A DNA stretch of 48,459 bases, taken from contig NC_090600.1 of the NCBI RefSeq assembly GCF_000497125.1, positions 868,001 through 916,459 of the forward strand. The letters run 5' to 3'. The stretch is from Spironucleus salmonicida. Lineage: Eukaryota. The notes under the pieces are model-generated. The model was not told the origin of the DNA and searched no databases. It was given only the letters and a program-made list of their open reading frames with translations. Below are positions 193 through 46,098 of the stretch, one piece after another; position 1 is the stretch's first letter; each line of letters opens with the position of its first letter. The position numbers and the translations under genes are program-made.

Positions 193-1146
193 TCACTTGC
201 TAACAACATCATTTATGAAGAAGTTGAGCACAGCCATAGCAGACCAAAGTCTGTTACCAGCTTCAGTGTAGGCGATAGATTTAGGTCCATCCATTACACT
301 AGCAGTTTACTCATCACCACGTTAAGCAGGAAGGCAATTCATGAATACAGAGTTAGTAGCAGTAAGAGCCATAGCTTCGTCATTGATCTGGAAAGGCATG
401 AGGTGTTTATAACGTTCAGCCTTCTGATCTTTAGAGATGTGATAAGACATCCAAGAATCAGCATACATAATGTTAACACCAGCACAAGCTTTAATATCAT
501 GAGCGATGGTACATTTACCACCGGAAATACGGTTAAGAGTGGCTACTTCATCAATGACTTCCTAAACTGGGGAATAATCTTTATGATCAGGGCAAATAAC
601 AACCATTTCCATACCAAGCATGGCACAAGCACGCATAATATCATAGGTAACATTATTATAACAATCTCCAGAATAGCACATTCTAAGGCCCTTGAAGGAA
701 CCAAAATGCATCTTGATTGTCATGAAGTCACACACCATTTAAAGAGGATGCGCCCAATCATCAAGAGCATTGATACAAGGAACAGAGGCAAATTTTGCGA
801 GCTCAGTCATAGAAGCACGAGTGGGAAGACGGGCAGAAACGACGTCTACCATTCTGGAGATAACTTCAGCAGTATCCTACATGGTCTCTTTTACACCTAA
901 GTTAGAATTAGCACCTAATTCATAGTAAATGCAGTGACCACCGAGGTTTGTCATGGCAGTCTCAAGAGAAATACGAGTACGAAGAGAAGGCTTGGCAAAG
1001 AAGGCTAAAAGTTACTTGCCAGAGCAAGATTTTTGATATTTCTCTGGGTTAATCTTCATATCAATAGCAGTATCAATAAGGCGTTCAAACTCAGCAGGAG
1101 CAAGAGATGAGATAGTAAGAAGATGTCTGGTATTCTTGTAAGGCAT
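193..1146 (-). CDS. OTC: Ornithine carbamoyltransferase (arginine dihydrolase pathway), 317 aa
   Basis: With TAA/TAG=Gln: MPYKNTRHLLTIS...FAKPSLRT...HPLQMVCD...DSWMSY...FMNCLP...EAGNRLW...VVSK*. These are carbamoyltransferase motifs in the diplomonad-type form (SLRT, NCLP). Stop lies within AGTGA. Confidence 0.96.
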
Positions 1147-3210: not shown

Positions 3211-3650
3211 ATATTGTAGAAGTATAGTGTTATAATTGTAATCCTGATTAATATCGAAAATATGTTGTTATATGCTACCTATAGAATAGTGTATAAACTA
3301 TGGATACCTTTTACTAGTTAAGTATGTAAATTATATAGAACCTATCATATAATTAAGATCCTATTGAGTATATAATATCGTTAGTTTTTCCTTTGGATAA
3401 ATATATCCAGCAATTTTTATAAGAATAAATACATTGAATTAGTGATTTTAATTTTGTTATTTATTATTAGCAGTGACTTAAAGATAATAATTGGGATATT
3501 ACTTACTAAAATCAATGTAATAGCGTAAATTTATGTGCAAATCTTTTTTAAACCTATTTTTATATGAGACATGTTTATGTTTAACTACTAATTATATAAT
3601 TATATAATATTGGTTAATATTACTTTTCAAACCACTCCAAATTTCATATA

Positions 3651-5243
3651 ATGAACTACGTTAAAGTTTCAGAGGCGTTTGAAAAATCAAAGACTATGGC
3701 AGCTCAACAGGCGGAAAATGAAATTCCATCACTAGCATAATTCATTGAGAAACGAGACTTTATTGGAGCTGTCACACTTCTTAATTTCTAAAAATAAACA
3801 AACACTGTTCCAGAAGGAATACATCCTGATTTATGGTTAGCGTATTGTCATTTTCACTTAGGAAACTCTGATGAGGCATTAAGAATCTATACTGAATTAA
3901 ATTAGTAAGAACCTCCTCCATAAGACCATAATTAGCTAGAACTTTATAAGGCAATATGTCTACTTTATTTAGGTAGAATGGACGAAGCTCGCTCAGTTGC
4001 AACTAAACTTCCTGCATCACCACTCTAAAACAGGTTATTATTTCATGCATGTTCTAGGTTATTAGATGAAGATTCATTATAATAATATCATTAGAAGCTC
4101 AAAAATATCTCTCCAGATTAGATGGCTCTTGCTGCGGTACATTTTTTGAGAACACATTATAACTAAGCACTTGAATGTTATGAAGAGGTATTAGCAGTAT
4201 AATAGGAATATTATGCTATATATATGCATATGGCACTTTGTTTTTATAAATTAGGCGAATATGAGAGATGTGAAGAATAGTTATAAAATTATAGAGATCA
4301 TGCTGACGATTCATTTACTTCTATTAATCTCTTGGCAGCTACTAAATTTAAGATGGGAAAATTAAAAGAAGCTAATTAACTCTTAGACTAGATGAAAAAT
4401 GATCATTCTATATCTGAATTACCATAATTTAAGCATAATAAATGTCTGTATTCTGGTTTAAATGCAGCCACTCATATTCTTTAAACATTAACATCTGCAG
4501 TACCTGAAGCACGCGCTAATCTTTTACGTCTTTATATTGAGTAACGCTAGTATAAGGCAGCATATGATTTAATGTAGAATTTTGAACCAGCGGTATCTTA
4601 AGAATATTGTTTGAAAGCGGCTGGATTCGCCTATTTAGGACAACATACTACTGATATGGAAGCTTTAACATATGCTAGAGCAGCGTATGCAACTGTGGGT
4701 TAATCTGATGCAGATAAAGATACTCTATTAGGTCGTCGTTCTATGGCTGCAGCTTACTTTTTAGATGGAGAATTTGATGATGCCGCAGTTTATTATGATT
4801 CGATCGCCGAGATACCTAAAGAATCAGAAGAATAATTTGATCTCAATTATGGTCTCACATTAGCAGCAATAGGAAAAGATGATTAAGCTCTGGAATTCCT
4901 TGCCAGACAGATTAATTCACCATATTTTACATTAATCCATAAACAATGGCTTGCTAGATTATTTATTCGCTCAAAACGTGCTAAAATGGCATTTGAACTA
5001 TATTAAAAAAGCGAATCAAACAATCCAAGAACTGCACAGTTATTGAGAATCATTGCTCATGAATGTTTTGCAGTAGGTGAATTTAAATTAAGTGCTGAAG
5101 CAAGTAAAATTTTAATTAAAATAGATTCTGCTAGCGAGAACTTAAATGAATATAAAACGATGTTTAGAGCAGCTATGGCAGCGAGCACTTTAAAAGAGAG
5201 AGGTAAAAAAGTAACGCCACCTAAAATGGTTATGGAAGAGTGA
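3651..5243 (+). CDS. IFT56: Intraflagellar transport protein IFT56 / TTC26 / DYF-13 (TPR protein), 530 aa
   Basis: IPSLAQFIEKRDFIGAVTLL, LWLAYCHFHLG, LQNRLLFH, QMALAAVHFLRTHYNQA, PEARANL, DKDTLLGRRSMAA match TTC26 blocks. Upstream ACCACTCCAA; stop in AGTGA. Confidence 0.9.
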
Positions 5244-9330: not shown

Positions 9331-12300
9331 ATGGATCATATTTATTCTATCCTAGATATAAAACCAGTTCTAGGGCAACATCGAGTTAAATAATTAACTG
9401 ATGGCATTCATCCATAATTTATATAAGTTCACGGGAATAATAAAAGAGTATGGCCAGAGTATCAGTCAACTAAAGTTTAAGCGCCAAATATTACTAAAAT
9501 AAAAAAATCGAATTCCAAATTAAAAAATTCAAACCCCAATCTAATATAGCAATAAATTGACAATTAACCCAAATCTCTTCTTATTAAAAAGTAAAAATCG
9601 TTAATTCCTGATCTTCCATAAGACTTTAATAAATCTAAAAATATTGGATAGACTAAGATACCATTATTTTCCAATACAATTAAATACCAGTAAACTTTTC
9701 AAAAAACACTAAAGGTAGATGATTTATAAATTGATTAACCATTATCAGAAGGTGATTTTGCAGATATGAGAAGTTAAGGTCAGAAGTTTTTCAAAGATAT
9801 AGAGGAGAGTTGGTAGTTTTAGGGACATGAATTAGGACTGTCTCGCAAAATTATATCTGATAATTTAGTCGGTTAATCATCATTGGAGTAAATCAAAATT
9901 TAGCCACAATTAGCATCTAAAGGATTAGTAAGTGACAGTGATGATATCAGCAATAGCTTATATGATAATAGTTAAGCGAATTAGAAAGAAAATGAAGGTA
10001 AAATATATTTATCCAGAGATATTACCGCTGGTACCGAGACTGATCTGAGCTAATCTGGTGGGTGTGCTGCCGCTGGTACCGAGACTGATCTGAACTAATC
10101 AGCTAGACGTGCTGCCGCTGGTACCGAGACTGATCTGAACTAATCAGCTAGACGTGCTACCGCTGGTACCGAGACTGATCTGAGCTAATCTGGTGGGTGT
10201 GCGGCCGCTGGTACCGAGACTGATCTGAGCTAATCAGCTAAACGTGCTACCGCTGGTACCGAGACTGATATGGACGAATCAGCTAGACGTGCTACCGCTG
10301 GTACCGAGACTGATCTGAGCTAATCTGGTGGGTGTGCTGCCGCTGGTACCGAGACTGATCTGAGCTAATCAGCTAGACGTGCTACCGCTGGTACCGAGAC
10401 TGATCTGAGCTAATCTGGTGGGTGTGCTGCCGCTGGTACCGAGACTGATCTGAACGAATCAGCTAGACGTGCTGCCGCTGGTACCGAGACTGATATGAAC
10501 GAATCAGCTAAACGTGCTACCGCTGGTACCGAGACTGATCTGAACGAATCAGCTAGACGTGCTGCCGCTGGTACCGAGACTGATATGAACGAATCAGCTA
10601 AACGTGCTACCGCTGGTACCGAGACTGATCTGAACTAATCAGCTAGACGTGCTGCCGCTGGTACCGAGACTGATCTGAACGAATCAGCTAGACGTGCTGC
10701 CGCTGGTACCGAGACTGATATGAACGAATCAGCTAAACGTGCTACCGCTGGTACCGAGACTGATCTGAACTAATCAGCTAGACGTGCGGCCGCTGGTACC
10801 GAGACTGATCTGAACGAATCAGCTAGACGTGCTACCGCTGGTACCGGGACTGATCTGAGCTAATCAGCTAAACGTGCTACCGCTGGTACCGAGACTGATC
10901 TGAACTAATCAGCTAGACGTGCGGCCGCTGGTACCGAGACTGATCTGAACGAATCAGCTAGACGTGCTACCGCTGGTACCGGGACTGATCTGAGCTAATC
11001 AGCTAAACGTGCTACCGCTGGTACCGAGACTGATCTGAACGAATCAGCTAGACGTGCTACCGCTGGTACCGAGACTGATCTGAGCTAATCAGCTAGACGT
11101 GCGGCCGCTGGTACCGAGACTGATCTGAGCTAATCAGCTAAACGTGCTACCGCTGGTACCGAGACTGATCTGAACTAATCAGCTAGACGTGCGGCCGCTG
11201 GTACCGAGACTGATCTGAGCTAATCTGGTAGACGTGCTGCCGCTGGTACCGAGACTGATCTGAGCTAATCAGCTAGACGTGCTGCCGCTGGTACCGGGAC
11301 TGATCTGAGCTAATCAGCTAGACGTGCGGCCGCTGGTACCGAGACTGATCTGAGCTAATCAGCTAAACGTGCTACCGCTGGTACCGAGACTGATCTGAAC
11401 TAATCAGCTAGACGTGCGGCCGCTGGTACCGAGACTGATCTGAGCTAATCTGGTGGGTGTGCGGCCGCTGGTACCGAGACTGATCTGAACGAATCAGCTA
11501 GACGTGCTGCCGCTGGTACCGAGACTGATCTGAGCTAATCTGGTGGGCGTGCTACCGCTGGTACCGAGACTGATCTGAGCTAATCTGGTGGGCGTGCTAC
11601 CGCTGGTACCGAGACTGATCTGAGCTAATCTGGTGGGCGTGCTACCGCTGGTACCGAGACTGATCTGAGCTAATCTGGTGGGCGTGCTACCGCTGGTACC
11701 GAGACTGATATGAACTAATCAGCTAGACGTGCTGCCGCTGGTACCGAGACTGATCTGAACGAATCAGCTAGACGTGCTACCGCTGGTACCGAGACTGATC
11801 TGAGCTAATCTGGTGGGCGTGCTACCGCTGGTACCGAGACTGATCTGAGCTAATCTGGTGGGCGTGCTACCGCTGGTACCGAGACTGATATGAACTAATC
11901 AGCTAGACGTGCTGCCGCTGGTACCGAGACTGATCTGAGCTAATCTGGTGGGCGTGCTACCGCTGGTACCGAGACTGATCTGAGCTAATCTGGTGGGTGT
12001 GCGGCCGCTGGTACCGAGACTGATCTGAACGAATCAGCTAGACGTGCTACCGCTGGTACCGAGACTGATCTGAGCTAATCTGGTGGGCGTGCTACCGCTG
12101 GTACCGAGACTGATCTGAGCTAATCTGGTGGGTGTGCGGCCGCTGGTACCGAGACTGATCTGAACTAATCAGCTAGACGTGCGGCCGCTGGTACCGAGAC
12201 TGATCTGAGCTAATCTGGTGGGTGTGCGGCCGCTGGTACCGAGACTGATCTGAACGAATCAGCTAGACGTGCTGCCGCTGGTACCGAGACTGATCTGAAC

Positions 12301-13827
12301 GAATCAGCTAGACGTGCTACCGCTGGTACCGAGACTGATCTGAGCTAATCTGGTGGGCGTGCTACCGCTGGTACCGAGACTGATCTGAGCTAATCTGGTG
12401 GGTGTGCGGCCGCTGGTACCGAGACTGATCTGAACGAATCAGCTAGACGTGCTGCCGCTGGTACCGAGACTGATCTGAGCTAATCAGCTAGACGTGCTGC
12501 CGCTGGTACCGAGACTGATCTGAACGAATCAGCTAGACGTGCTACCGCTGGTACCGAGACTGATCTGAGCTAATCAGCTAGACGTGCTACCGCTGGTACC
12601 GAGACTGATCTGAGCTAATCTGGTGGGCGTGCTACCGCTGGTACCGAGACTGATCTGAGCTAATCTGGTGGGCGTGCTACCGCTGGTACCGAGACTGATC
12701 TGAGCTAATCTGGTGGGCGTGCTACCGCTGGTACCGAGACTGATCTGAGCTAATCTGGTGGGCGTGCTACCGCTGGTACCGAGACTGATATGAACTAATC
12801 AGCTAGACGTGCTGCCGCTGGTACCGAGACTGATCTGAACGAATCAGCTAGACGTGCTACCGCTGGTACCGAGACTGATCTGAGCTAATCTGGTGGGCGT
12901 GCTACCGCTGGTACCGAGACTGATCTGAGCTAATCTGGTGGGCGTGCTACCGCTGGTACCGAGACTGATATGAACTAATCAGCTAGACGTGCTGCCGCTG
13001 GTACCGAGACTGATCTGAACGAATCAGCTAGACGTGCTACCGCTGGTACCGAGACTGATCTGAGCTAATCAGCTAGACGTGCTACCGCTGGTACCGAGAC
13101 TGATCTGAGCTAATCTGGTAGACGTGCTACCGCTGGTACCGAGACTGATATGAACGAATCTGGTAAGTTAATCAGCAATAGGCTCATAAGCTTGTCTAAT
13201 ACAAACATAATCATTTAGGAAATACAACCCATGAAGCAGCTGCAGCTTCATTCGTCTGTCAGCGATAATGATGGAAAAGTATCCCTAAGTAACGTCCCAT
13301 CCTACGAATCCAATGCGGTTAATAACGACAGCAATGCTCAGTTTTTTAAGCTCGAACTAAAGACCCCCGTTTATAACGATAATCAGCTCTTTTTATCACT
13401 TGATAACAGTACAATCGAGGAGGATAATCCAGAGCAAATCGATTTCAACCAGTCATAATCTACCAGAACTGCAAGCCAGATACCTCTGGCGTGTCAAAAA
13501 CAACCACTGCAGCCCCTCGCAGCCCTGCTAAATCCTAAATTGTCCCGGGAGAGCAAATCCAGTGTTGTTGGCTAGCTCCCACCAATCGGCTAACACCCGG
13601 CTAGACGGCCTGTACAGATTGCTCCAGCTAATAAGCCTCGTCCGATTAGCGGCGATCCGTACGGGCAGGCTGGGCCGAAGCGGCCTAAAAATCAGCGTGA
13701 CAGCCTCTATCTACACGGCGAACGCGACATCTGGGGCGACGACTCGACCACGCTATTTAGGAACCCTCGGATTATAAAAAAAGAAATTGTGAAAAAGGAG
13801 ATTAGTTCCGTGTACGGGAAAAAGTGA
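9331..13827 (+). CDS. Large repeat-containing, probably disordered protein, 1498 aa
   Basis: One frame from ATG 9331 to TGA 13825-13827 (AGTGA) running through the 45-bp array, with unique N-terminal (~230 aa) and C-terminal (~220 aa) parts. Confidence 0.85.
10024..13165 (+). repeat. Coding tandem array, 45-bp (15-aa) unit, 70 copies (last one partial)
   Basis: Unit starts at 10024 and 13129 differ by 69x45 with no net indel. Peptide [T/A]AGTETD[L/M][S/N][Q/E]S[G/A][G/R/K][C/R]A. Confidence 0.98.
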
Positions 13828-13834
13828 TTAAAGC

Positions 13835-14734
13835 TCATTTCACAATCTCGGTTGTCAAAAACTTATGCTTTAGTAGCTCCTCTGCGCTGGGCCTCTTGCT
13901 TTCGTCCTTGCTTAGACACCTTTTAACGAAGTCCTTCAGGTCGTTTAGCCCCTCAAATTCGACTCCAAATTCAACTTTTCCTTCCTAAATCTTCCTCTTC
14001 GTAATTTCGATGTTTTCGTCAAAAAATGGGGGCTGTCCAACACGCATTTCGTACACCAGGATTCCTAGCGCCCATATATCACTTCTGGAGCCGTAGGATT
14101 AGCCCGAGACTACCTGTGGCGGCAAGTAGTCCAAAGTGCCACATTGCGTTCTTCTTCTACTTTGCTGCAAAACTGACTTCGCAGCAATAAGAGGCTGATG
14201 AACCGACCATCCGAAATCTGACAATTTAGGGACTAGATCCATAATGCTAGGTGTCAAAAGGGTTGATTTTTGTAAAGAATTTGCTTGTTTTTATAAGAAG
14301 GGCTATGAATACCCTAAAACTATATTTTCAAGCTTTATATCTCGATGAACGATGGATTTAGAATGAAGGCACGCCAGTGCTTTAGCTATTGCTTTTGTAA
14401 CATGCTAAACCTCCAATGGTGAAAATCTGTTGGTTTCCAAATGTGCGTACAGCTCTCCTCCCGGGCAATATTCTAAAACTAAAACAACTCGCTTATCATC
14501 TTAAAAATACGATAACAATCTAACTATATTAGGGTGTCTAAGATTAGCATGTATATCAAGTTCTCTACGAAGTTACCCCTCGCAGCGTTCTTTCAAAATA
14601 TATTATTTAAAAAGTACTTTCAGTGCTACTAACATGCCAGAAGGTATATGCCGTGCTAAATATACTGTGCCATACTTTCCACGGCCCAAAAACTTACCAA
14701 TTGAAAAATCATCCATCGTAGGAACGGGAAGCAT
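13835..14734 (-). CDS. Aurora-family Ser/Thr kinase, 299 aa
   Basis: [74 protein letters not shown]. Confidence 0.93.
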
Positions 14735-17470: not shown

Positions 17471-18330
17471 ATGTTTGTTCTCCTTGCTGATCTATATCAC
17501 AATCAGGAGTTCCTTGAAACTATTAAACGTATCCCCAATATGAAATGGAAGATGGTATTCCTAAACGTTTTGAGGGCATGACTGTAAAATAAGTTAGATA
17601 ACTCCTTAGCACAAATATTTAGCATCTTCCATCATATTCTGTGACACTAACAGGAGAAGTTCCAGATTCATGGAACTGGAGTAAAAGGATGCCAAAATGC
17701 TCTGGGCCTGATACTGTTCGGGATTAGGCAGACTGTGGCTCGTGCTGGGCCTTCTCAGCTGTAAATCAGCTTGCTGACAACAGATGTATTTAAAAGTTAG
17801 ACAAAAAACGTATTTAGCTTTCTGAACAATATGTAGTTTCTTGTGACCCAATAAATACTGGATGTGATGGTGGATATATAAAAGTTGTTTAACACTATCT
17901 TATCAATACAGGTACTGTTACGGATAAATGCACACCTTATACTTCTGGTTTATCTGGAAGAGACGGTAAATGTCCTTAAAAATGTAAGGATGATTCTGAG
18001 CTGGAATTTATCAAAGCAACTAAGACTGAAAATGTTTGTGCTGATGAAGAATCTATTAAAGTTGCCATCACTAAAGGTCTTGTTTAAACTGGATTTTCTG
18101 TATTCTCCGATTTCATGTATTATGAAAGTGGAATCTATGAACATACTTCTGGGTCTTTAGAAGGTGGTCATGCTGTAATGTTTGTAGGTTATGGTGAAGA
18201 AAATGGCACCCCTTATTGGACTGTTAAAAACTCATGGGGTAACAGTTTTGGAGAAAATGGTTTCTTCAGAATTATCAGAGGCCAAAATGAGTGTGAAATT
18301 GAAGATGCATGCTTCTTACTTACTCCTTGA
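17471..18330 (+). pseudogene. Cathepsin B-like protease copy 1 with a 1-nt frameshift near 17550 (pseudogene or sequence error)
   Basis: 860 bp against 861 bp for copy 2; tggaagatggtattcc vs tggaaggctggtattcc. The shifted frame hits TGA about 10 codons later. Catalytic region is intact. Confidence 0.75.
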
Positions 18331-20186: not shown

Positions 20187-21047
20187 ATGTTTGTTGTCCT
20201 GGCTGAGCTCTATCATAAGCAAGAGTTCCTCGAATCTCTAAAGCGTGTGCCTAACATGAAATGGAAGGCTGGTATTCCTAAACGTTTTGAGGGTATGTCT
20301 GCTGTCTAAGTAAAATCTCTATTAAGTAAGAATATGTAGCAACTACCAGCTCCTACCGTGAAGTTAACTGGCGAAGTGCCAGAATTCTGGAATTGGAATC
20401 ATGAAATGCCAGAGTGTGCTGGAGCTAAGACTGTTCGGGATTAGGCAGACTGTGGCTCGTGCTGGGCCTTCTCAGCTGTAAATCAGCTTGCTGACAACAG
20501 ATGTATTTAAAAGTTAGACAAAAAACGTATTTAGCTTTCTGAACAATATGTAGTTTCTTGTGACCCAATAAATACTGGATGTGATGGTGGATATATAAAA
20601 GTTGTTTAACACTATCTTATCAATACAGGTACTGTTACGGATAAATGCACACCTTATACTTCTGGTTTATCTGGAAGAGACGGTAAATGTCCTTAAAAAT
20701 GTAAGGATGATTCTGAGCTGGAATTTATCAAAGCAACTAAGACTGAAAATGTTTGTGCTGATGAAGAATCTATTAAAGTTGCCATCACTAAAGGTCTTGT
20801 TTAAACTGGATTTTCTGTATTCTCCGATTTCATGTATTATGAAAGTGGAATCTATGAACATACTTCTGGGTCTTTAGAAGGTGGTCATGCTGTAATGTTT
20901 GTAGGTTATGGTGAAGAAAATGGCACCCCTTATTGGACTGTTAAAAACTCATGGGGTAACAGTTTTGGAGAAAATGGTTTCTTCAGAATTATCAGAGGCC
21001 AAAATGAGTGTGAAATTGAAGATGCATGCTTCTTACTTACTCCTTGA
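20187..21047 (+). CDS. Cathepsin B-like cysteine protease (papain family C1A), 286 aa
   Basis: DQADCGSCWAFS (Gln/Cys), GCDGG, GGHAV (His), WTVKNSWG (Asn), GENGFFRI. Short pro-region; no His-His occluding loop. Confidence 0.95.
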
Positions 21048-32335: not shown

Positions 32336-34416
32336 ATGATAAAATAATATATAACTTATTATATATATTAATATATACGATCTTAAACAAAATTTACATA
32401 GATTAACCAAATTGTTTCACACAAATCTAAAATAATATAATATGAGCTGCAAATAGTTATTATAGCGGTCCCTATTAAGATTATCTTCATATCATCACTA
32501 TAAAATCTATTAGTAGTATGTAACACGTACTAAATACACAAAATGACAAAGTTCATCTTCAAAAGATTCAATCCTTTTACAGTCACATTGCTCCCGTAAA
32601 AGGCTTGAATTTTTTAAAAAGTGAAATTTCTCATGTTTATACTTTTAGTAAGTATTACATACTACTCTATTACTATTTCATGTACGTTAAATAATAAAGA
32701 AATATGTTGATAATTATCGATGAAACAAATAATGGATTAAAGTATATCATGATTCCAAAAAGTGCACTTCTAGGCCTAAAAAATTATAATAATAATTCTT
32801 CTTACCGAATAGTATTAATAAATTAGCATTAGTAAAAAATTTATGTTTAGTTCTGATTTTTATAGATTACTAATTCAAAGAACAAGGTGATATCAATTTA
32901 TATCAATTTATAATATACTTTTTCAAAATTCAAAATAGAAATTTATCTTGTAAGAATAGTTAAGAAAACATTAGAATATTAGGCTTATGTAAGGAATGTA
33001 TATACTGAATAAGCAATATATTTACAATATACTTATTGCGTATGAATGTACATTAAATTATATAAAAATATTTCAAATAAAGTTTAGTAAAAATATATAG
33101 CCTAGAATTTACTTTTAACTATTACTCCTAATAAGTAATTGACATACTTATAATTTCATTATAATCTTCCTATAAAATGTCTATTAAGTATACTTTAACA
33201 GCTTTTAATTCAGAATCGATATAGTATTAGTATACAATTAGAAAATATTAAAGAAATTTTAAATTAAGAAATATACCGAGATACTTTTACATTAGAACAT
33301 GTAAAAAACTTTAAATTATCTCTTATTCCTTTTACGTTTCCATTAGTGTAACTCTAATTTAAAGGATAAAATAACGACATTTAATAAAACATACAGAAAG
33401 AGTAATTTAATATTAGTTTCATTATTTCATAGAAATAGAATGACTAGTATCGTATAACCCTTATAAATATTATAACTGAAATATTATCATACGAACCATA
33501 TATTAGTATACAACATCGTTTACTAACTGCCTTATCTTTTATTTAGTTATTTATATAATCATATTAGTCTTTAGCTGTCTGATTTTCTCGTTAGTAAAAT
33601 TAATATAACTTTTAAATAGTCTTAATTAAATGTAGTATCAAGAGTATATCACATAGTAGTTACGATAATTTTAAAATTACAATTAAATAATTATTGAAAA
33701 GGAATAAAGTAAAAATAATATGTTAGATTATATTTTTATAAGATATTATAGTCTATAGTTATGAAGAAGAATTAAACAACAGTAATGGTAATTTTCAACT
33801 GCAACTGTTTTGTTTGGCAAGATAATACAGATAATTTAACAAATATTGATTATTTCTAAATAAAAATTAATATTATTAGGGTTTTCAATATAGTTTACAC
33901 TTATAATAATTCAATCTATATATTTCTTTTACTAGGAAATATCAATATGATTTATGAGGATTGTTGTTAGCTTTTAAGCTATTGTTGATCCGATCAATGT
34001 TATTTCAGTAATAAGTAATTATTTTTTTATAATATAATATACTATTATAATTTTTAATCCGTATAATGAGAGTACTTTACGGAAACCAATTTATTTTTAT
34101 ACATGTCTGCTAATAGTTATAATAATGAAAATAATTTATCTAGATTATTTGATATTGTAGATTTTAACTTAAATACCTATTAGTCTGATGAAAATAAATA
34201 TAGTATATTGAAATGTAGAAAAGTCAACTTTCGTCTCTAATCATTAAAATATCAGGGGTATTTTTATTTAATTGTTTAAAATTTAATGTATTAGAATTAT
34301 AAATCTTAAAGCATCCTCTTTTAGATAATAAAGATTATTATAATGAATTATTACTCCATCTTCTACTATATTGCAATAAATAAAGCCTACTATACGTACA
34401 AAAATTAACATTATTT

Positions 34417-37400
34417 TCACTTAAATTGTAAAGAACTCATATTTCGTCTTATATTTGGGTCGGTGGTAATTTTATTCTAATTAATCTATTCTGATTATAG
34501 CTGAAGTTACGGTATTTCCTTATTATTTTATTTTGCAGGCAACTTAGTAATTAAAGTGTCATAATTTTTAAGGTAAAATACTTACTTATTAGAGGTAGGC
34601 GTAACAACCTACTCAGAAATTTAAACAACAGTAGTAGGCATTAGAGATGCTGCACTTAATTATTTTTACGTGATACTTCTAGAATCGATATTAAGCTACA
34701 TATCTTTTAAAAGTTAATTATGGGTCGTAGGTGCACTTTTTTACTAATTATAATTTGTCTTGGCTGGTTTAAAAAATTCCTTGTATTGTTTTCTGGATTT
34801 AAAAAATGCTTTTACTCCAGTAATAATTTTAGATGTATCGGAAATTTGTCTATTTCTTCTATGATCCCAATACGAACTTTATATATTGAAATGTAATAAA
34901 CTTATAAAAACAATAACTAATGAGATTGCTTATAATATTATTACAAGCAATGAAATTGTATAATTATTATCTCTTGCTGTTTTAAAATCTCCAACCGCGG
35001 TAATAAATTATGCCCATATTGCTGAGGAGATGAGGTTTATCCCGAACTCTACTGCAGAAATGTGCATCATAACGACAATATTAACAATATTGAAGAATAT
35101 TTACGTAAATAAGCTGGACAGAAAAATGTCATATTCTAGAATCGATTTTATTATCTCGCTTGGGTATGTTAGACCGACCATGCTATTTACCATAAAGGAT
35201 GCCAGGGAAAGTCTCCCGATGGCACCGACCTCGCCGTATCTCCCGAGTATCAGGTCGAACAGATAGAACTGGGCACCATTTAGCAGTATTGCAATGCTGA
35301 CCATGATCTGCCCTGATATGATATTCCAGCTGGAGGATTCCGAGAAATACCCTAACTGCTCTGTACCTTAAATCGCAAATAGGATCTATGCGAATATCGG
35401 TAACATGATTGCGATGAACACCGCCAGCTTCTGCTAAGATTTGAAGCGGAAGCCAGCTAGAAATACACACATGAAGAGCGTCACGAGCGGACCAGCCAAC
35501 TTGTAGATTTGCTCGCCGAAGTCATGCACCACGTCTGACACCGCCTGGTACTGCACGAAGTGAAACGAAAGCTCTAGGAGTGCCGCCAGGATGAACAGGA
35601 AGAAATGGGATGGGAGGTTGTAGAAGAACTGCGTGTACGTCGGAACCGCCAACAGGAAGAGCACGAGCACGAAGGGGACCATCGAGAAAATATTGACTGC
35701 GATCTACATGAAGAAGTCGTTGATGTAGACGTCCTGGATAGCGATGATAATGGCAAGGGCCTGGGAGAGCATGACGAATATCAGGTGCGGCCCGATCCGC
35801 TTGATTTGGCGCTTGGCATAGACAACTATCTTCCGCTTCCCGGCCTTCGATAACCTGAGAATTACGATTAGGAGCACCAGCAGGAGCAAGAATGAGAGCA
35901 CCGGGACGGCAATCACAAAGGTCATGTATCCGGGGGAGATCCGCTCCACCACGCACTGATCGACCACTAAGATGAACCTTGGCCCGCAGTAGTCGCACTC
36001 CGCCACGCCCATCTGGTTTCGGAAGCACACCCCAGTCGGGCTTTGCAGCAGGGGGCAACAGCAGCGCGAGAAGGCCTCGGTGCGACAGTCGCAACTTATG
36101 TACCCCTGTGTGCACTCTGAACAGACCGCTCCGCCCCAGCCTTCCTAGCACTCCCCGCAGAACAGCTAGTTGGCCGTAGCTATGCAAGTGCCGCGCAGCT
36201 AGTCGTTCTCCGGTGCAGTAGCCGTGCCGCAGTTGCCTTTGATATGCTCCAGCCCGGGCCTGCACACGAGACACTGCTGTATGTTCATGTCGAAACTAAG
36301 ACAGGGCGAATCGGCGCAAGTGACGAGGGTGGCGGTCTGGAAGCACTCGCCTGGGAAGTTCACGGCGTGTTGCTTGCACTCTGGACCGAAGGTGGCTTCG
36401 ACCGAGCACATCGTGCAGTTGAACGACTGACGGTGCGGACCGCACGTTGGACAGTAATAATCTCCGGAACTGTCTTTCCAGCATGCGGTAGATGACGCCT
36501 ACAGGCAGTACCCACCCAGCAGCGAGAAGATGTCCTCGCACCGGAAGCAGTTGTGGGAGAGTGCGTGCCCTAGTGAGCAGGAACCACACTAAATAGAGTC
36601 GCCCGAGTAGAAGCAGCTCCCCTGGGTGCAGTCGGCGCACGGTATCAGGCACCGGTTGACGCCGATGACGACCAGCTCGTCAGCGGGCAGTATGTTGGAG
36701 CTGGTGTAACCGGGCTGGCAGTCGTTGCACTCGCCAGAAACATCGATTTGGTACCCCAGCGAGCATGTGGTGCACAGCGGCATGGCGTAGTTGTACTGGC
36801 ACTCCTGGCAAAAGCTGTCTAGCGAGTCGACCGCGTTCGTGAAGCAGACCCCAGTGGCCACGTCGTTCCGGTAGTAGCAGCTTCCCTCCCTTTCCAGTTC
36901 TGAGCACTCATCGCATGAGGGACCCGCGTACCCCTTGTAGCAGCTGCACATTACTTATCCCTGGAGGGTGAAACAGTCGCCGTTGGGGTTAGGGATCGGC
37001 GGGTAGCACTTGTTCTCGTGGAGAATGAAGCCGAGGTAACAGCTGCAGCAGAAGTACGAGGGTCCCTGGTCGTAACACTCTCCAGCGCACTCCGGAAGTA
37101 CGCACCTCGCCAGACACTGCTGACCCACGAGGACCTTCCCCGGGAGGCAGGAGGCGCAAACCAGTGTTCCAGCCCCGTTGCGGTAACACCCGTCGTCGGT
37201 CACCTGCACCTAGCACGCACCACCTGCGAAGATAAATCCGTCGATGCAGGCATCGCACTGTTAGCCTGTAAACGAGCCGACGCAGCTGGAGCACCGGATG
37301 CCGCCAGGAGTGTAGAAGCAGGTCCCCGCTGCACACGTAATGCACGGCTTTAGGCACCCGCCTAGGGCCGCCACAAACCCGTTAGCAGCATCGCAGACCA

Positions 37401-40400
37401 GACACCCATCCCCCGTGTATCCTGGAAGGCAGAACCCCGCACATATCAGGCGCCCGGACGCATCAACGTAGCACCGGTCTCCCTGGCATTTTTCGCAAAG
37501 CTCCAAGCACTCGGCCCCAATGTTTATGAAGCCGGCCCAGCACCCCTGACAAGACGGACCCTGGAAATTATCTTTGCACGACGAGCAGACGATGCTACCG
37601 TTCTCGTAAAAGCAGTCTCCATTGCAGCCGTCGCATCTCACCAGGCACTGACCCAAGAAGCTACCGGTCCCCGCTTAGCACGAGTCGCACTGCTTTCCAA
37701 CCGCATATTGGTTGCAGCGGCAGGTCTAGTCGTGCTGGCAAACCCCGTTAATGCAATTAGTTGGGAGGCACTGAAAAATACACTGAGCCCCAACAAGGAG
37801 ATAATCCTGCGCGCACGAAAAGCAAATGGTCTCCAGAGCTATTTTGATGCATTTGCCATGTTCTATTTTCTCATCTTCAAGATTATGGCAAACCTCTCCA
37901 TATAACCATTTATCCGCTGGACACTCATCGCACCTATTTCCAGCAATGCCTGCATTGCATGAAAAGCACTTAATGTCACATTTATCTGGAGGTAGCATGC
38001 ATTCCTAGAGATAATAGCAGTCGCCAGTTAGGCATTCTGCACATTTTTTCAAGCAGAGCTCGCCATCTGCCTTAAAACCTGAATCACATTCCTGGCATTT
38101 GGGCGCTTTCCAGCCGATCTTACATGCAGAACATTCCCATTCACCACCATTACCGCTTAAATACACGCACCCAGCACCTTACGCGCATGCTCCGGTCAGG
38201 CAGACATTTTTACAGCCTTTATCGCTGCTTTTCGTACAGAACTGACAGCTTATTCCACCGAAGTGATCTCCACAGTGGCAATCCCCGTCCTCGCATCGAT
38301 TGCCATTACATTCCTGAGAATTTTTACATACAAAACCATCACAAATACCGTCAATACTGAAATAGCCATCAGAACAAACACAAAAGTTGTCAAGGACTTA
38401 TCCATGGAAGCACTGAGATTTTTAATCTCCAATACAGGTTGCAAATCCTGTGCTCGCATCGCAACTAGTAGCCCCACCAATGCAGAAGGTGCAAAGGTCA
38501 ATCTCACATTTATCACCGGAATAACCTGGTCTGCAAACACACCCAAAAATAGCACTACATGTACTACCTTTATTGCAAAAATCTGGAGGACATGTGTGGG
38601 TTTCGCAGTTCTTCCCACTGTAGTCTTAGTTACAAGTTAAAATTTTGCCATCGAAGATGCCGTGGCATTCACTATAACAAAGATTTTCTTGATTTTTAAT
38701 ATTTATTTGGACGCGTAGTAGTTCTTGTTGGATGAATGGTGGGATCTCAGGACTGGCGAGCTCCGCGAGGGAGGCTATTGAAACAGTAAAAAAATCTTAT
38801 AGGCGCACCATACCATCATTGCGGAAATCAACTATCCACTTTCCATCTTGTAATAGTTTGGTGACACCGGGACCTGATTACATTTCTGCTTTGCTGATTT
38901 ATTGAGGGCTACTGATTTTCCCGGTACCTATCAGAATATAAACGTTTATCATATTGCTGTTTCGCTCGGTGGATATGATAGGTACATCGCTTTAACAGAA
39001 TATCTCTGACGACTACTCAACAAAATTGATTATTTCATTATCTTGCGCTTCCTTTATCAGTAACACACATTTTTTGTTATTAGGGCTTATTAGTTTGAAA
39101 TTGACAAGCATGTTAATAAAAAATGATTTTAGCGCAGTTTGTGAAATTCCATTTATTATCCCTTATTATTTAAGCTAAATTTAACCACAAATAACCGCGA
39201 AGTTGAAGCTTATTTATTATATAAGGTCGGATATTCCGCTAAATTTATCAATTGAGACTTAACTAATTTCAATATTCTTCTAAATAATAATATGGTCAAT
39301 GTTTGCCTTTATCATATCTTATGCCAAGCCGAATATAACACTTTTTTCTACATTTACCCCATCTGATATAGTAATAAAATTGCAAAATGACATATTTAAC
39401 ATAAACATAGCTTCAATTTTTAGACTTAATGGATAATAATTTACAGCAGAGGCTGCATAACTTAAATGTGTATTGCAATTGAACGAAATGTTTGTAAATT
39501 TGCAGTTTGTTATTAATTTGCCCATCCCATAATTGCTGAAACTTCCATTCGTAGATCCACTAATAGATAAGTTTAGAGATACCATTGAAATTGTTACTTC
39601 ATCTAAACTATTGAAAAAATAAGCTATCTATTGAGACTTGCATTTTTCCATCTCTAACGTAGAATTTATTGAAACAAAACTTACCTAAATATTTTTAACA
39701 TTACTTTCTGCTAAAAGGATTGCTATAAATGGTGTATCAGTCATAGTTAGGGATGACTATATTGCAATATTTGAAATATCTGCATTTTCTTCCACTATTT
39801 AGGATAACTATGTTATTTTAGTGGCTGTTTTAGAGTTTGACTGTAAGTCTATTGTTATTTTCAAGTTCTTAAGATTTCCAATTAGCTGCTGGCAAATACT
39901 AAAAATAGTAGTATGGGTTAAAGCAGAACTAGTGCTAATGAAAATCATTATTTCAGATTTACTTATAGTTTTTGTGATTTAAGAAAATCCATAGATTAGT
40001 GAAATTTCTCGCCCAAAAATTTTAACATTAATATTTAATAAATCAACAAATGTTTACATTGATACTCCATAAATTTATGTCGTTTCCATGGCAGTAATTA
40101 TTACAGAAACTGGAAAAGCACCCATAAGGTCTTAGCAGATTCCAAAAATTGTAGATGCCATAGTAATACTTATAGTAACTGATAATGATGTAGATTTTAG
40201 ACTTTAAATACTTTTTGATATACCATATACGTTATATTGTGTTTTCAAGAAAGGAGTACATATAATAGAGAAATCGCAGCTTCTAAATTAAGATTCTATA
40301 ACTTAAGTAAAAAATGTGATCTCGGCTAGATTAGTAATTTTATCACTTTGAATTTTGAAAGAAGTGTCTTAAAATGAAGCTGTACTGAGTTGTTCCATAA

Positions 40401-40677
40401 CACGGAAAGAATCTAAGATATCAGTTTCTACAGAGATTCTTATATTACTAAGAATCCCAGTAAACTTTTAAATTAACATCCCACCTCCTGGTATACTTAA
40501 AATTGTAAGTGTATTTCTAGCTCCTGAAAGAGTTCCGTTAAAAAAATTAATTATGGCTGAGCTGGAAATTGTTAGACTGATATCTTTTTCTATAACAAAA
40601 TTATCATTTTACATAGTATTAAGTTGATAAAAACCATCGCCGTCAGAAAGTATAATCAAACTAAAAATAACTAGCAT
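34417..40677 (-). CDS. Giant Cys-rich membrane protein (2086 aa): signal peptide, Cys-poor beta-rich region, EGF/furin-like Cys repeats, ~11 TM helices, cytoplasmic tail
   Basis: Track fragments starting at 39585, 37998, 37656, 37209, 36951, 36411, 36030, 35682 and 35304 share one frame, broken only by TAA/TAG. No in-frame TGA in the 38581-40500 and 34417-35100 stretches I read. Starts MLVIFSLIILS; stop in AGTGA. Confidence 0.9.
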
Positions 40678-41540
40678 TTCTCATTTCAGTTTAATTATGT
40701 TCATAATATCAATTTATTGATTATTGCAAATTAATTTAAATCTATAAACAAAATTTAATATTGTATTATTATTGCGTATTAGAAAATTTTATAACTTATA
40801 GATTTATTATAGAGTTGAATAATAATTAATATGTGTTTAAGACTCTTTTTATTATTGATAATATAATTAAATATAAATTATTTATAGGCTAGCATATACA
40901 ATTATTTTTGAATTATAGAATAATACTTATATAATAGCTTAAGTTTATTTTTATTTTTATAATTATACACATATATTCAATTATTTCATACTTACATAAA
41001 ATCAAGTATAAAATTATTATTAACTAATAAATAATTATAGATTCTAGATATTTATATTTATTAAGAAAAGTATACTTACCATACCAAATATAATTTAATT
41101 CTAAGAGCTCTATATAAGTAAATAAGATATAATAATATTTATTTAGAAGTAATATCTTAATAGTTTATATAAATTTATATCAACTAAACATTATAATACA
41201 GTAATATATATTATTGTTAATTATCAAATATTATAATAAGACAAACAATGATTATTTTATTAATTATTCGTCATGTTAAAATTTCAAGATTATACATCAA
41301 GCTATATAATTTCACATGCGATACAACAAATTTAGTCGCCTTCTGCATAGTTGTAGATTCTAATAGCCAAGACAATAATTTATTAATTTGATATGCAAAT
41401 TCATTTATGTAGTTTTAATTAAAAATAGCTAATTCTATTGAAATAATACTTTAAATCACCAAATATCGAGTACGACATAATCTAGCAAATTTTAACATTC
41501 ACCTCTTGATCCGCTACAATATTTAGGAATATGCCACTTA

Positions 41541-45168: not shown

Positions 45169-46098
45169 ATGATCGTTGTTGTAAAATGTACGGAATCTAA
45201 AAATACGTGCCCTGTAGACAAATTTTGCCCAGCACCCGCCGAAGAGGAAATGGAATGTCTAGACTGCACTGATGATAAAATTGAATCAACTCAAGGGTGT
45301 AATTGTGTGGAGAAAGTTGCAATTAAAAGGTGCAAGGAATGCAATGAAGGATAATGCACAAAGTGCTTCGATAAGTCATTTATGAAAGCAGATGGCTCCT
45401 GCGAAGACTGTAGTTTTAACTGTGCTACCTGTGAGACTACCTAGGATAACTGTACCTCATGTAAGGCAGGATTTATATTGGATATGTAAACAAAAATGTG
45501 TGAAAGGACCTGCAAGTCCCACAAAGAATGCACAAGCAAGAATAGTGGTTACTGTGACTTCTCAGTGGGATAATGTAAAGCTTGCTCAGATGGTTGCCGC
45601 TCCTGTGCTTCCAAGACATTTTGTGCCTAATGTAATGACTCAGAGGGAAAACCAGTACTTACTATAGATGGTACATGCACAGCTGCTTGTGCTGGTATTT
45701 AAGATGGAAATTACTGCAAGAACGGAACTGCCACAAAATGTGAAGGTAGCATTACTTCAGAGTGTAAATGTGGTGAGAAAAAGAGCTGCGCTACTTGCAA
45801 TACTGACAGTTCAGCTTGTGAGACATGCCTACCGAATATTACTAAAACTGCAGATGGTGACTGTAGTGATTGTGCAGAAGGATACGAATCTGTTGGGCTC
45901 TTGTGCATATCAACATCTACATTGGAAAGTAATGGTACAAACCTTGGCGGGGGTGCAGTAGCAGGAATAATAGTTGGAGTTCTGGTAGTTCTAGGAGCTG
46001 TTGGAGGAGGTTTGACCTACTATTTCATCAAAAAGTCAAAAACATAGAAGTTCTAAGCAGGTATGGAGGAAAGCACATCGAAATAAGCTCCAGAGTGA
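45169..46098 (+). CDS. Cysteine-rich membrane protein (CRMP/VSP-like), 309 aa
   Basis: Many CXXC motifs; TM segment LGGGAVAGIIVGVLVVLGAVGGGLTYYFI followed by KKSK; stop in AGTGA. Confidence 0.93.

Follow-up and report, generated by a model that had tools for sequence, protein, structure and literature searches.

A Spironucleus salmonicida Cys-rich ectodomain protein with a C-terminal region modelled as a ten-helix DMT-fold domain

Introduction

We analysed a stretch of 48,459 nucleotides from Spironucleus salmonicida (NCBI RefSeq assembly GCF_000497125.1, contig NC_090600.1, positions 868,001 to 916,459 of the forward strand), hereafter the window, with a focus on the gene at 34417..40677 on the reverse strand. 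Its product of 2086 aa, referred to as P0001, joins a giant Cys-rich ectodomain to a C-terminal region that models as a complete ten-helix domain of the drug/metabolite transporter (DMT) fold. The reading that we hold to be rather probable is that of a surface protein in which ligand capture by a variable head is tied to solute movement or sensing by the tethered DMT domain. S. salmonicida is a diplomonad that uses genetic code 6, in which TGA is the sole stop codon. Known DMT carriers are small proteins that stand alone, and the known Cys-rich surface proteins of diplomonads are single-pass antigens.

The Cys-rich proteins CRMP-1, CRMP-2 and CRP of S. salmonicida have been classed by CXXC/CXC motifs, a C-terminal transmembrane (TM) helix and a KKXKK-type motif, and the transporter census of this organism was made by BLASTP against TCDB together with Pfam matches (PMC3916229). 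A survey of VSPs and CRMPs applied the criterion that fewer than 100 aa follow the TM helix (PMC11437800).

The gene and its parts

From N- to C-terminus P0001 consists of a beta-helix head, a Cys-rich stalk, an anchor helix, a basic linker, the ten-helix DMT-fold domain and a tail, with the following coordinates in the window.

34417..40677 (-): whole coding sequence of P0001, 2086 codons plus the TGA stop at 34417-34419, NCBI table 6
38773..40665 (-): predicted right-handed parallel beta-helix head, about residues 5-635, from an AlphaFold2 (AF2) model on alignment A2, VIA-align and Foldseek
35941..38679 (-): Cys-rich stalk, residues 667-1579, with EGF/VSP-like CXXC repeats and 139 Cys
35857..35919 (-): anchor TM helix FVIAVPVLSFLLLLVLLIVIL, residues 1587-1607, predicted to run from outside to inside, from hydropathy; lies inside model helix 3-32
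35794..35856 (-): basic, putatively cytosolic linker, residues 1608-1628, with 7 K/R and 0 acidic residues in the 18 counted (model residues 33-50)
34879..35793 (-): predicted ten-helix DMT-fold domain, residues 1629-1933, from the AF2 model, VIA-align, Foldseek and ESM features
34420..34878 (-): putative cytosolic Q/N/K-rich tail of 153 aa, residues 1934-2086, read from the sequence by eye

The coding sequence is one open frame in which 66 in-frame TAA/TAG codons are read as Q. Summed over its three frames and with the terminal stop included, the coding strand has 63 TGA triplets, none of which lies in frame ahead of the terminal one; given the TGA frequency of the window (0.0169 per triplet), 2086 TGA-free codons have a chance of ~4e-16. 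Read with the standard code, the longest open piece across 34417..40677 is 120 aa. The N-terminus of P0001 aligns with the starts of its paralogs.

The original prediction, made from the letters of the window, had proposed a single gene in code 6 that encodes ~660 aa of beta-rich sequence, ~900 aa of Cys repeats, one anchor TM with a basic linker and about ten further helices at ~35790-34890. This outline stands. The frame is intact across its 2086 codons, residues 1-~635 are modelled as an all-beta solenoid, the stalk measures 913 aa with 15.2% Cys, FVIAVPVLSFLLLLVLLIVIL is followed by the linker with its 7 K/R, and in the structure model the anchor is followed by ten helices, neither more nor fewer, which occupy residues 1630-1933 (34879-35790).

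GC content shifts sharply inside the gene (34420-40665), from 0.295 in the head to 0.543 in the stalk, 0.516 in anchor plus linker, 0.434 in the DMT domain and 0.283 in the tail; conversion between paralogs, described below, is seen in the stalk, where GC is highest.

Integrity of the fusion

Four public runs from a single study (X1-X4), the RNA nature of which was guessed, gave single contigs of 2133-2553 nt. In 4/4 runs such a contig, with its ends at 34592-34976 and 37107-37144, connects the DMT domain to the stalk across the anchor with no joints or indels, which speaks weakly for a single transcript. Contigs of these runs leave the flanks at 34200-34423 and 40696-40900 uncovered, and the 5' third of the gene (~39365-40677) is almost without them. 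Per 1.7-2.6 kb they show 7-16 differences from the window (34420-39364). Many of these are common to all four runs, and they could be strain or allelic variation or a blend with paralogs.

That a single-pass Cys-rich gene and an adjacent transporter gene were misread as one, by an error of assembly or of reading, is extremely improbable. Such an error would fit the older assembly, in which all that exists of P0001 is P0008, a fragment of 386 aa whose end is frameshifted. Against it stand the lack of a stop between the two parts and anywhere else in the 2086 codons, the clean crossing of the junction by contigs of 4/4 runs, and the presence of the same junction in at least 11 paralogous models on four contigs, at identities down to 24%; moreover, since the linker is conserved, a start codon context at the junction is not required. 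The fusion of ectodomain and multi-pass region in one frame, as originally put forward, is real and recurrent in a family of S. salmonicida. As to P0008 itself, it is 95-99% identical to P0001 near the junction and continues with unrelated residues after '…IYKLA', which looks like a frameshift or an assembly error in the earlier record.

Fold of the C-terminal domain

Alignment A1 was made of P0001 residues 1580-1952 and eight paralogs, with identities from 71% down to 24%, and was used for AF2 modelling. The resulting model has the anchor helix plus ten helices, at a mean predicted local distance difference test (pLDDT) of 72.8 and a predicted TM-score (pTM) of 0.67. It was compared with 48,161 chains by means of VIA-align, an aligner independent of Foldseek. 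The top eight chains are all DMTs, with Z values of 21.2 for the CMP-sialic acid transporter (CST; 6i1r), 19.1 for PfCRT, 18.3 for YddG and 18.0 for Vrg4, followed by 17.9, 17.4 (LicB), 16.4 (triose-phosphate translocator, TPT) and 14.6 (SLC35B1); the next chain has a Z of 8.2. In the superposition with 6i1r, 279/309 residues are aligned at a root-mean-square deviation (rmsd) of 4.1, and the range aligned by VIA-align, model residues 51-355, spans all ten helices.

Foldseek against the PDB agrees. Ranks 1-38 all belong to the DMT superfamily (SLC35B1, PfCRT, CMP-sialic acid transporter, LicB, Vrg4, YddG and triose-phosphate translocator), each with probability 1.00 and target-normalised TM-scores of 0.46-0.66. 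Beyond rank 38 come unrelated carriers at probability <=0.6, save for a YddG chain at rank 41 (0.96). The combination of AlphaFold and Foldseek, by which the DMT fold of the original prediction was to be checked, thus has DMT carriers at the top of both the Foldseek and the VIA-align list. The closest clusters by ESM language-model features, all at 0.96, carry SLC35F, CRT-like, UAA, EamA or TPT; the closest that is named has SLC35F on 43% of its members (0.96) and is taken as a lead only. Hence the assignment of the multi-pass region to a complete ten-helix DMT fold is, as a model-based prediction, well supported.

The SLC35F/EamA label, which the original prediction drew from four motif-level resemblances, is not supported by any profile match at E<=10. 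No subfamily is favoured structurally, CST, PfCRT, YddG, Vrg4, LicB and TPT all having a Z of 16-21.

The likeness to the solved DMT carriers (CST 6i1r and 6oh4, PfCRT 6ukj, YddG 5i20, Vrg4 5oge, LicB 7b0k, TPT 5y78 and SLC35B1 9gry) is one of fold, over 241-295 residues at an rmsd of 3.6-5.1, and of N-in/C-in orientation, which for P0001 is inferred from charge. Identity to them is 6-13% by VIA-align and 8-14% by Foldseek. Whereas the solved carriers are stand-alone proteins of ~255-350 aa, the DMT domain of P0001 makes up the C-terminal sixth of a 2086-aa chain, in which an ectodomain of 1580 aa and an additional helix come before it.

Anchor, linker, tail and topology

FVIAVPVLSFLLLLVLLIVIL is the strongest hydrophobic segment of P0001 (Kyte-Doolittle 3.33). 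Hydropathy after this anchor gives 8-10 further hydrophobic segments that fill residues 1630-1930. The linker appears in the model as an amphipathic helix that runs on into DMT helix 1. With 13 K/R on predicted inside segments versus 1 on outer segments, the ten-helix unit is predicted to be N-in/C-in, the usual arrangement of DMTs. We read head and stalk as the extracellular, or luminal, part of P0001. The N-terminus of the DMT domain would come to lie on the cytosolic side because the extra anchor helix crosses inward from the outside head, and this inward crossing therefore allows an N-out ectodomain to be joined to an N-in carrier. The tail holds a motif common to close paralogs, …TKLP.K… …LQL.S.[EQ]I…, as read by eye.

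Beta-helix head

Ahead of the head, the chain begins with MLVIFSLIIL, a short hydrophobic stretch that resembles a signal. Alignment A2, of P0001 residues 1-666 and four paralogs (P0003, P0004, P0005 and P0009), gave an AF2 model of a long all-beta solenoid of ~630 aa with pLDDT 85.7 and pTM 0.86. All 50 chains listed by VIA-align for this model are beta-helix or solenoid proteins with Z 11.9-20.9, among them PL6 lyases, phage tailspike depolymerases, the AlgE4 epimerase, the adhesins PfbA, pertactin and EtpA, an IgA1 protease and NosD. Foldseek returned parallel beta-helix proteins nearly throughout, in rows that were partly checked and at low TM-scores of 0.11-0.30. The predicted fold of the head is clear, a right-handed parallel beta-helix of stacked three-strand coils. 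This fold is used by polysaccharide lyases and hydrolases, by phage tailspikes and by bacterial adhesins. The part of the head model at ~150-640 superposes on PL6 alginate lyases, tailspikes, AlgE4, PfbA/pertactin/EtpA and NosD of the NosDFY transporter with Z 12-21 over 231-479 residues, at only 6-12% sequence identity to the P0001 head; these bacterial and phage proteins, unlike the P0001 head, have no DMT tether. Pfam assigned no enzyme family to the head of P0001.

The matches of head and DMT domain taken together also allow for a protein of the endoplasmic reticulum (ER), Golgi or encystation vesicles, in which a DMT domain resembling a nucleotide-sugar transporter would supply a luminal beta-helix enzyme (an epimerase, lyase or synthase-like enzyme) that builds or trims a polysaccharide, for instance of the cyst wall. 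The top structural matches include the Golgi nucleotide-sugar transporters CST and Vrg4, those of the head include the polysaccharide-modifying AlgE4 epimerase and PL6 lyases, the topology is identical whether 'outside' stands for cell surface or lumen, and one tagged CRMP-1 of S. salmonicida was localised to ER-like structures (PMC3916229). We nevertheless consider this quite improbable. No catalytic motif was seen in the head, for which no dedicated test was made; exposed surface proteins typically have disulfide-rich stalks such as this one of 900 aa; and 11 paralogs with heads that are 15-37% identical resemble a recognition repertoire more than a biosynthetic enzyme. A surface protein with a ligand-capturing head is the reading that we retain.

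Cys-rich stalk

The stalk has 139 Cys, and P0001 as a whole has 7.2% Cys, with 32 CXXC and 8 CXC motifs. The density of Cys is 12-17 per 100 residues at 701-1600, with nearly none at 1-600 and 1601-2086. Pfam matches in the stalk are weak and below cut-off (EGF_TEN, E 5.6e-4; EGF_LMN_ATRN, E 7.3e-3), and among PDB sequences the stalk has no relatives at E<=0.01.

Two paralogs encoded outside the window, P0004 and P0005, have stalks that are 98.5% identical over 600 aa (equivalent to P0001 residues 901-1500), whereas their heads are 34.5%, their DMT domains 77% and their tails 25.5% identical. Such a patchwork has the look of a recent segmental conversion or recombination event restricted to the stalk.

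Paralog family and conservation

At least 11 gene models, P0001 included, carry the Cys-rich and DMT parts, and they lie on four contigs (1.07, 1.73, 1.88 and 1.92 Mb). The head is also present in 9/11. P0003, P0004, P0005, P0007, P0009/P0018, P0014/P0025, P0020 and P0026 (2082-2766 aa) have a long N-terminal region plus stalk plus DMT domain; this region is beta-helix-like by alignment in P0003, P0004, P0005 and P0009, and corresponding regions are present in P0014 and P0020. P0006 (1253 aa) and P0012 (1457 aa) consist of stalk plus DMT domain only. Paralogs are annotated as 'Transmembrane domain-containing protein' and have no precomputed Pfam domains. KAH0576935-37 correspond to P0020 (2766 aa), P0019 (1564 aa, without a DMT name) and P0012, neighbours that belong to the divergent branch; a break may have divided what is a single gene into P0019 and P0012.

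All named homologs of P0001 are from S. salmonicida, and none with the same architecture was found from Giardia, Hexamita, Trepomonas or Kipferlia, where the original prediction had suggested to look. The short fragments P0015-P0017 (24-41% identical) are the sole hints of relatives elsewhere. With 711 aa of stalk plus DMT domain as query, the ESM Atlas clusters of >=50 members gave only stand-alone DMT clusters, at 0.85-0.86.

Identities of P0001 to P0003, P0004 and P0005 differ strongly by part.

DMT domain: 74-78%
Cys-rich stalk: 55-62%
Beta-helix head: 32-37%
Anchor plus linker: 32-38%
Tail: 27-44%

DMT domains are 77-79% identical in all four pairs compared (P0004-P0005, P0001-P0004, P0001-P0003 and P0014-P0020). 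Across nine aligned DMT domains with identities down to 24%, 27 columns are invariant, and invariant polar or charged residues within predicted helices are Q60, Q69, D70, Y72, K147, Q170, R243, N284 and N302 (domain numbering). By these comparisons, the head varies within the family and the DMT domain stays constant.

The conservation pattern bears on a further possibility, namely that the DMT fold is a non-transporting scaffold, for dimerisation, trafficking or conformational signalling, of a giant adhesin or variant surface protein. This would agree with a DMT domain that has diverged past recognition by all DMT profiles, with a conserved cytosolic tail motif that fits signalling or sorting, and with the apicomplexan CRMPs, in which a Cys-rich ectodomain with nine TM helices acts in a complex and which are not known as carriers (PMC9815656). 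A mere anchor, however, would have no need of 74-78% identity when the actual anchor helix has fallen to 32-38%; polar and charged residues that are invariant within helices typify a ligand cavity; and the complete ten-helix fold is kept in the model. We regard a scaffold as somewhat unlikely, and favour a working carrier or sensor because the DMT domain is the best conserved part and has such invariant residues in its helices.

Evidence weighing against the proposed reading

Several observations weigh against a ligand-capturing head joined to a DMT carrier or sensor. The DMT fold rests on a single AF2 model from a 9-sequence alignment of a single species, at pLDDT 72.8. Pfam, at E<=10, gave no DMT-clan family for P0001, its C-terminal 507 aa or the nine paralog domains; the A1 profile had 0 matches in the PDB at E<=10; and phmmer against 1.84 billion representatives returned 12 hits, all of them family members or fragments and none a stand-alone transporter. 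Comparison of the N-terminal with the C-terminal half of A1 by hhalign gave a probability of 0.1%, and no 5+5 sequence repeat was seen. As regards the gene, a contig that crosses the junction is no proof of one transcript, the runs being only guessed to be RNA and stemming from one study. As regards the head, the beta-helix fold is common to enzymes and inert adhesins alike.

Profile searches for proteins of near length and for longer ones gave no DMT family, which is weak evidence of absence with only 8000 word-sharing candidates scored. The HMMER-type comparison with EamA, SLC35F and TPT profiles likewise gave none at E<=10, and PF06027 (SLC35F) had no match at that threshold in P0001 or in the paralog domains. 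Of the DMT/SLC35F-type ten-TM transporter in the original prediction there remain, in the model, the DMT fold and the ten helices; the SLC35F/EamA subtype, for which no profile matched, is not supported.

Divergent DMTs often lose the sequence signal of their internal repeat. The match of the modelled domain to both halves of solved DMTs lends indirect support to a possible internal duplication.

Proposed function

The surface reading, ligand capture by a variable head tied to solute movement or sensing by the tethered DMT domain, would operate as follows. The signal-like start would lead head and stalk outside, or into a lumen. The extra TM helix would return the chain to the cytosol, where the basic linker, the N-in/C-in DMT domain and the 153-aa tail would follow. 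The head would most likely bind, and possibly cut, a glycan or host-surface ligand, and paralogs would differ chiefly in the ligand that their head recognises. The DMT domain would be a working solute-binding or solute-carrying module, beyond mere anchoring, and would be functionally coupled to the head, while the tail motif of close paralogs could serve sorting or signalling. A transceptor, or capture-coupled uptake, can reasonably be inferred. In a stronger form of this reading, the members of the family would each be a self-contained capture-and-carry or transceptor machine and together make up a repertoire; their variable head would recognise and perhaps depolymerise a glycan of the host or the environment, and the covalently tethered DMT domain would import the product or signal its presence through the tail. 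This form is speculative and, on balance, unlikely.

Comparison with Cys-rich proteins of parasites

With CRMP-1 and CRMP-2 of diplomonads and VSP and HCMP of Giardia, P0001 shares the CXXC/CXC-rich stalk, a hydrophobic anchor and basic residues (PMC3916229, PMC11437800). Differences are manifold. Diplomonad CRMPs and VSPs have one C-terminal TM helix and a tail of <100 aa (PMC11437800), whereas 479 aa and ten more helices follow the anchor of P0001, and that class has >10% Cys overall versus 7.2% in P0001. The [KR][KR]X[KR][KR] motif that follows the TM helix of CRMP-1 (PMC3916229) is absent in P0001 and present in 1/10 paralog linkers. P0001 moreover has a beta-helix head, by which these classes are not defined. 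The P0001 family falls outside these published definitions of the CRMP/VSP classes.

The window itself holds a canonical small diplomonad Cys-rich membrane protein at 45169-46098 (+), of 309 aa with a single TM helix and a short basic tail (…YFIKKSKTQK…), in contrast to P0001 with its 11 helices. Its E value with Pfam VSP is 5e-5, a match below cut-off.

The apicomplexan CRMPs (Toxoplasma CRMPA/B and Plasmodium CRMP1-4), with an architecture that was compared by description only, likewise have a giant, EGF-like Cys-rich ectodomain and a C-terminal multi-pass core, and some of them have parallel beta-helix repeats, as in the P0001 head (PMC9815656). They differ in having nine TM helices with no assigned fold and in acting as a heterodimer in rhoptry discharge (PMC9815656), versus 1+10 helices with a modelled DMT fold in P0001.

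In full-text literature no report of an ectodomain of this kind in fusion with a DMT domain turned up; the supplementary tables of Cys-rich proteins and transporters of PMC3916229 lay outside this search and could list these genes. We read P0001 as a new domain architecture assembled from known folds.

Other features of the window

The remaining features are the following.

193-1146 (-): ornithine/aspartate carbamoyltransferase
3564-5243 (+): TPR/ANAPC3-like protein
9331-13827 (+): open reading frame (ORF) of 1498 aa, mostly tandem 16-aa units AGTETDL(S/N)(Q/E)S..R(A)A(A/T)
13835-14734 (-): protein kinase
17545-18330 (+) and 20187-21047 (+): tandem papain-family (Peptidase_C1) cysteine proteases, E ~1e-59

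The ORF at 9331-13827 lies in a GC-rich block (0.52-0.54), has no Pfam family and is overlapped by an antisense ORF at 9780-13232 (-). The two Peptidase_C1 genes are identical in their C-terminal ~220 residues and have different N-termini.

Significance

The P0001 family escapes filters for counting VSPs and CRMPs that require <100 aa after the TM helix (PMC11437800), and sequence-based transporter censuses would overlook it as well. It forms an independent parallel to the CRMP invasion proteins of Apicomplexa. A conserved family in which the two kinds of protein are fused, and which has a head of the glycan-enzyme/adhesin type, points to a way in which a parasite living outside cells might link what it recognises around it to the uptake or sensing of solutes. 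For this salmon pathogen, the architecture offers a candidate, open to testing, for how nutrients are scavenged or the host is sensed. Should the capture-and-carry form prove true, P0001 would be the first DMT-fold carrier joined to a receptor ectodomain, and the family would represent a new class of diplomonad host-interaction proteins.

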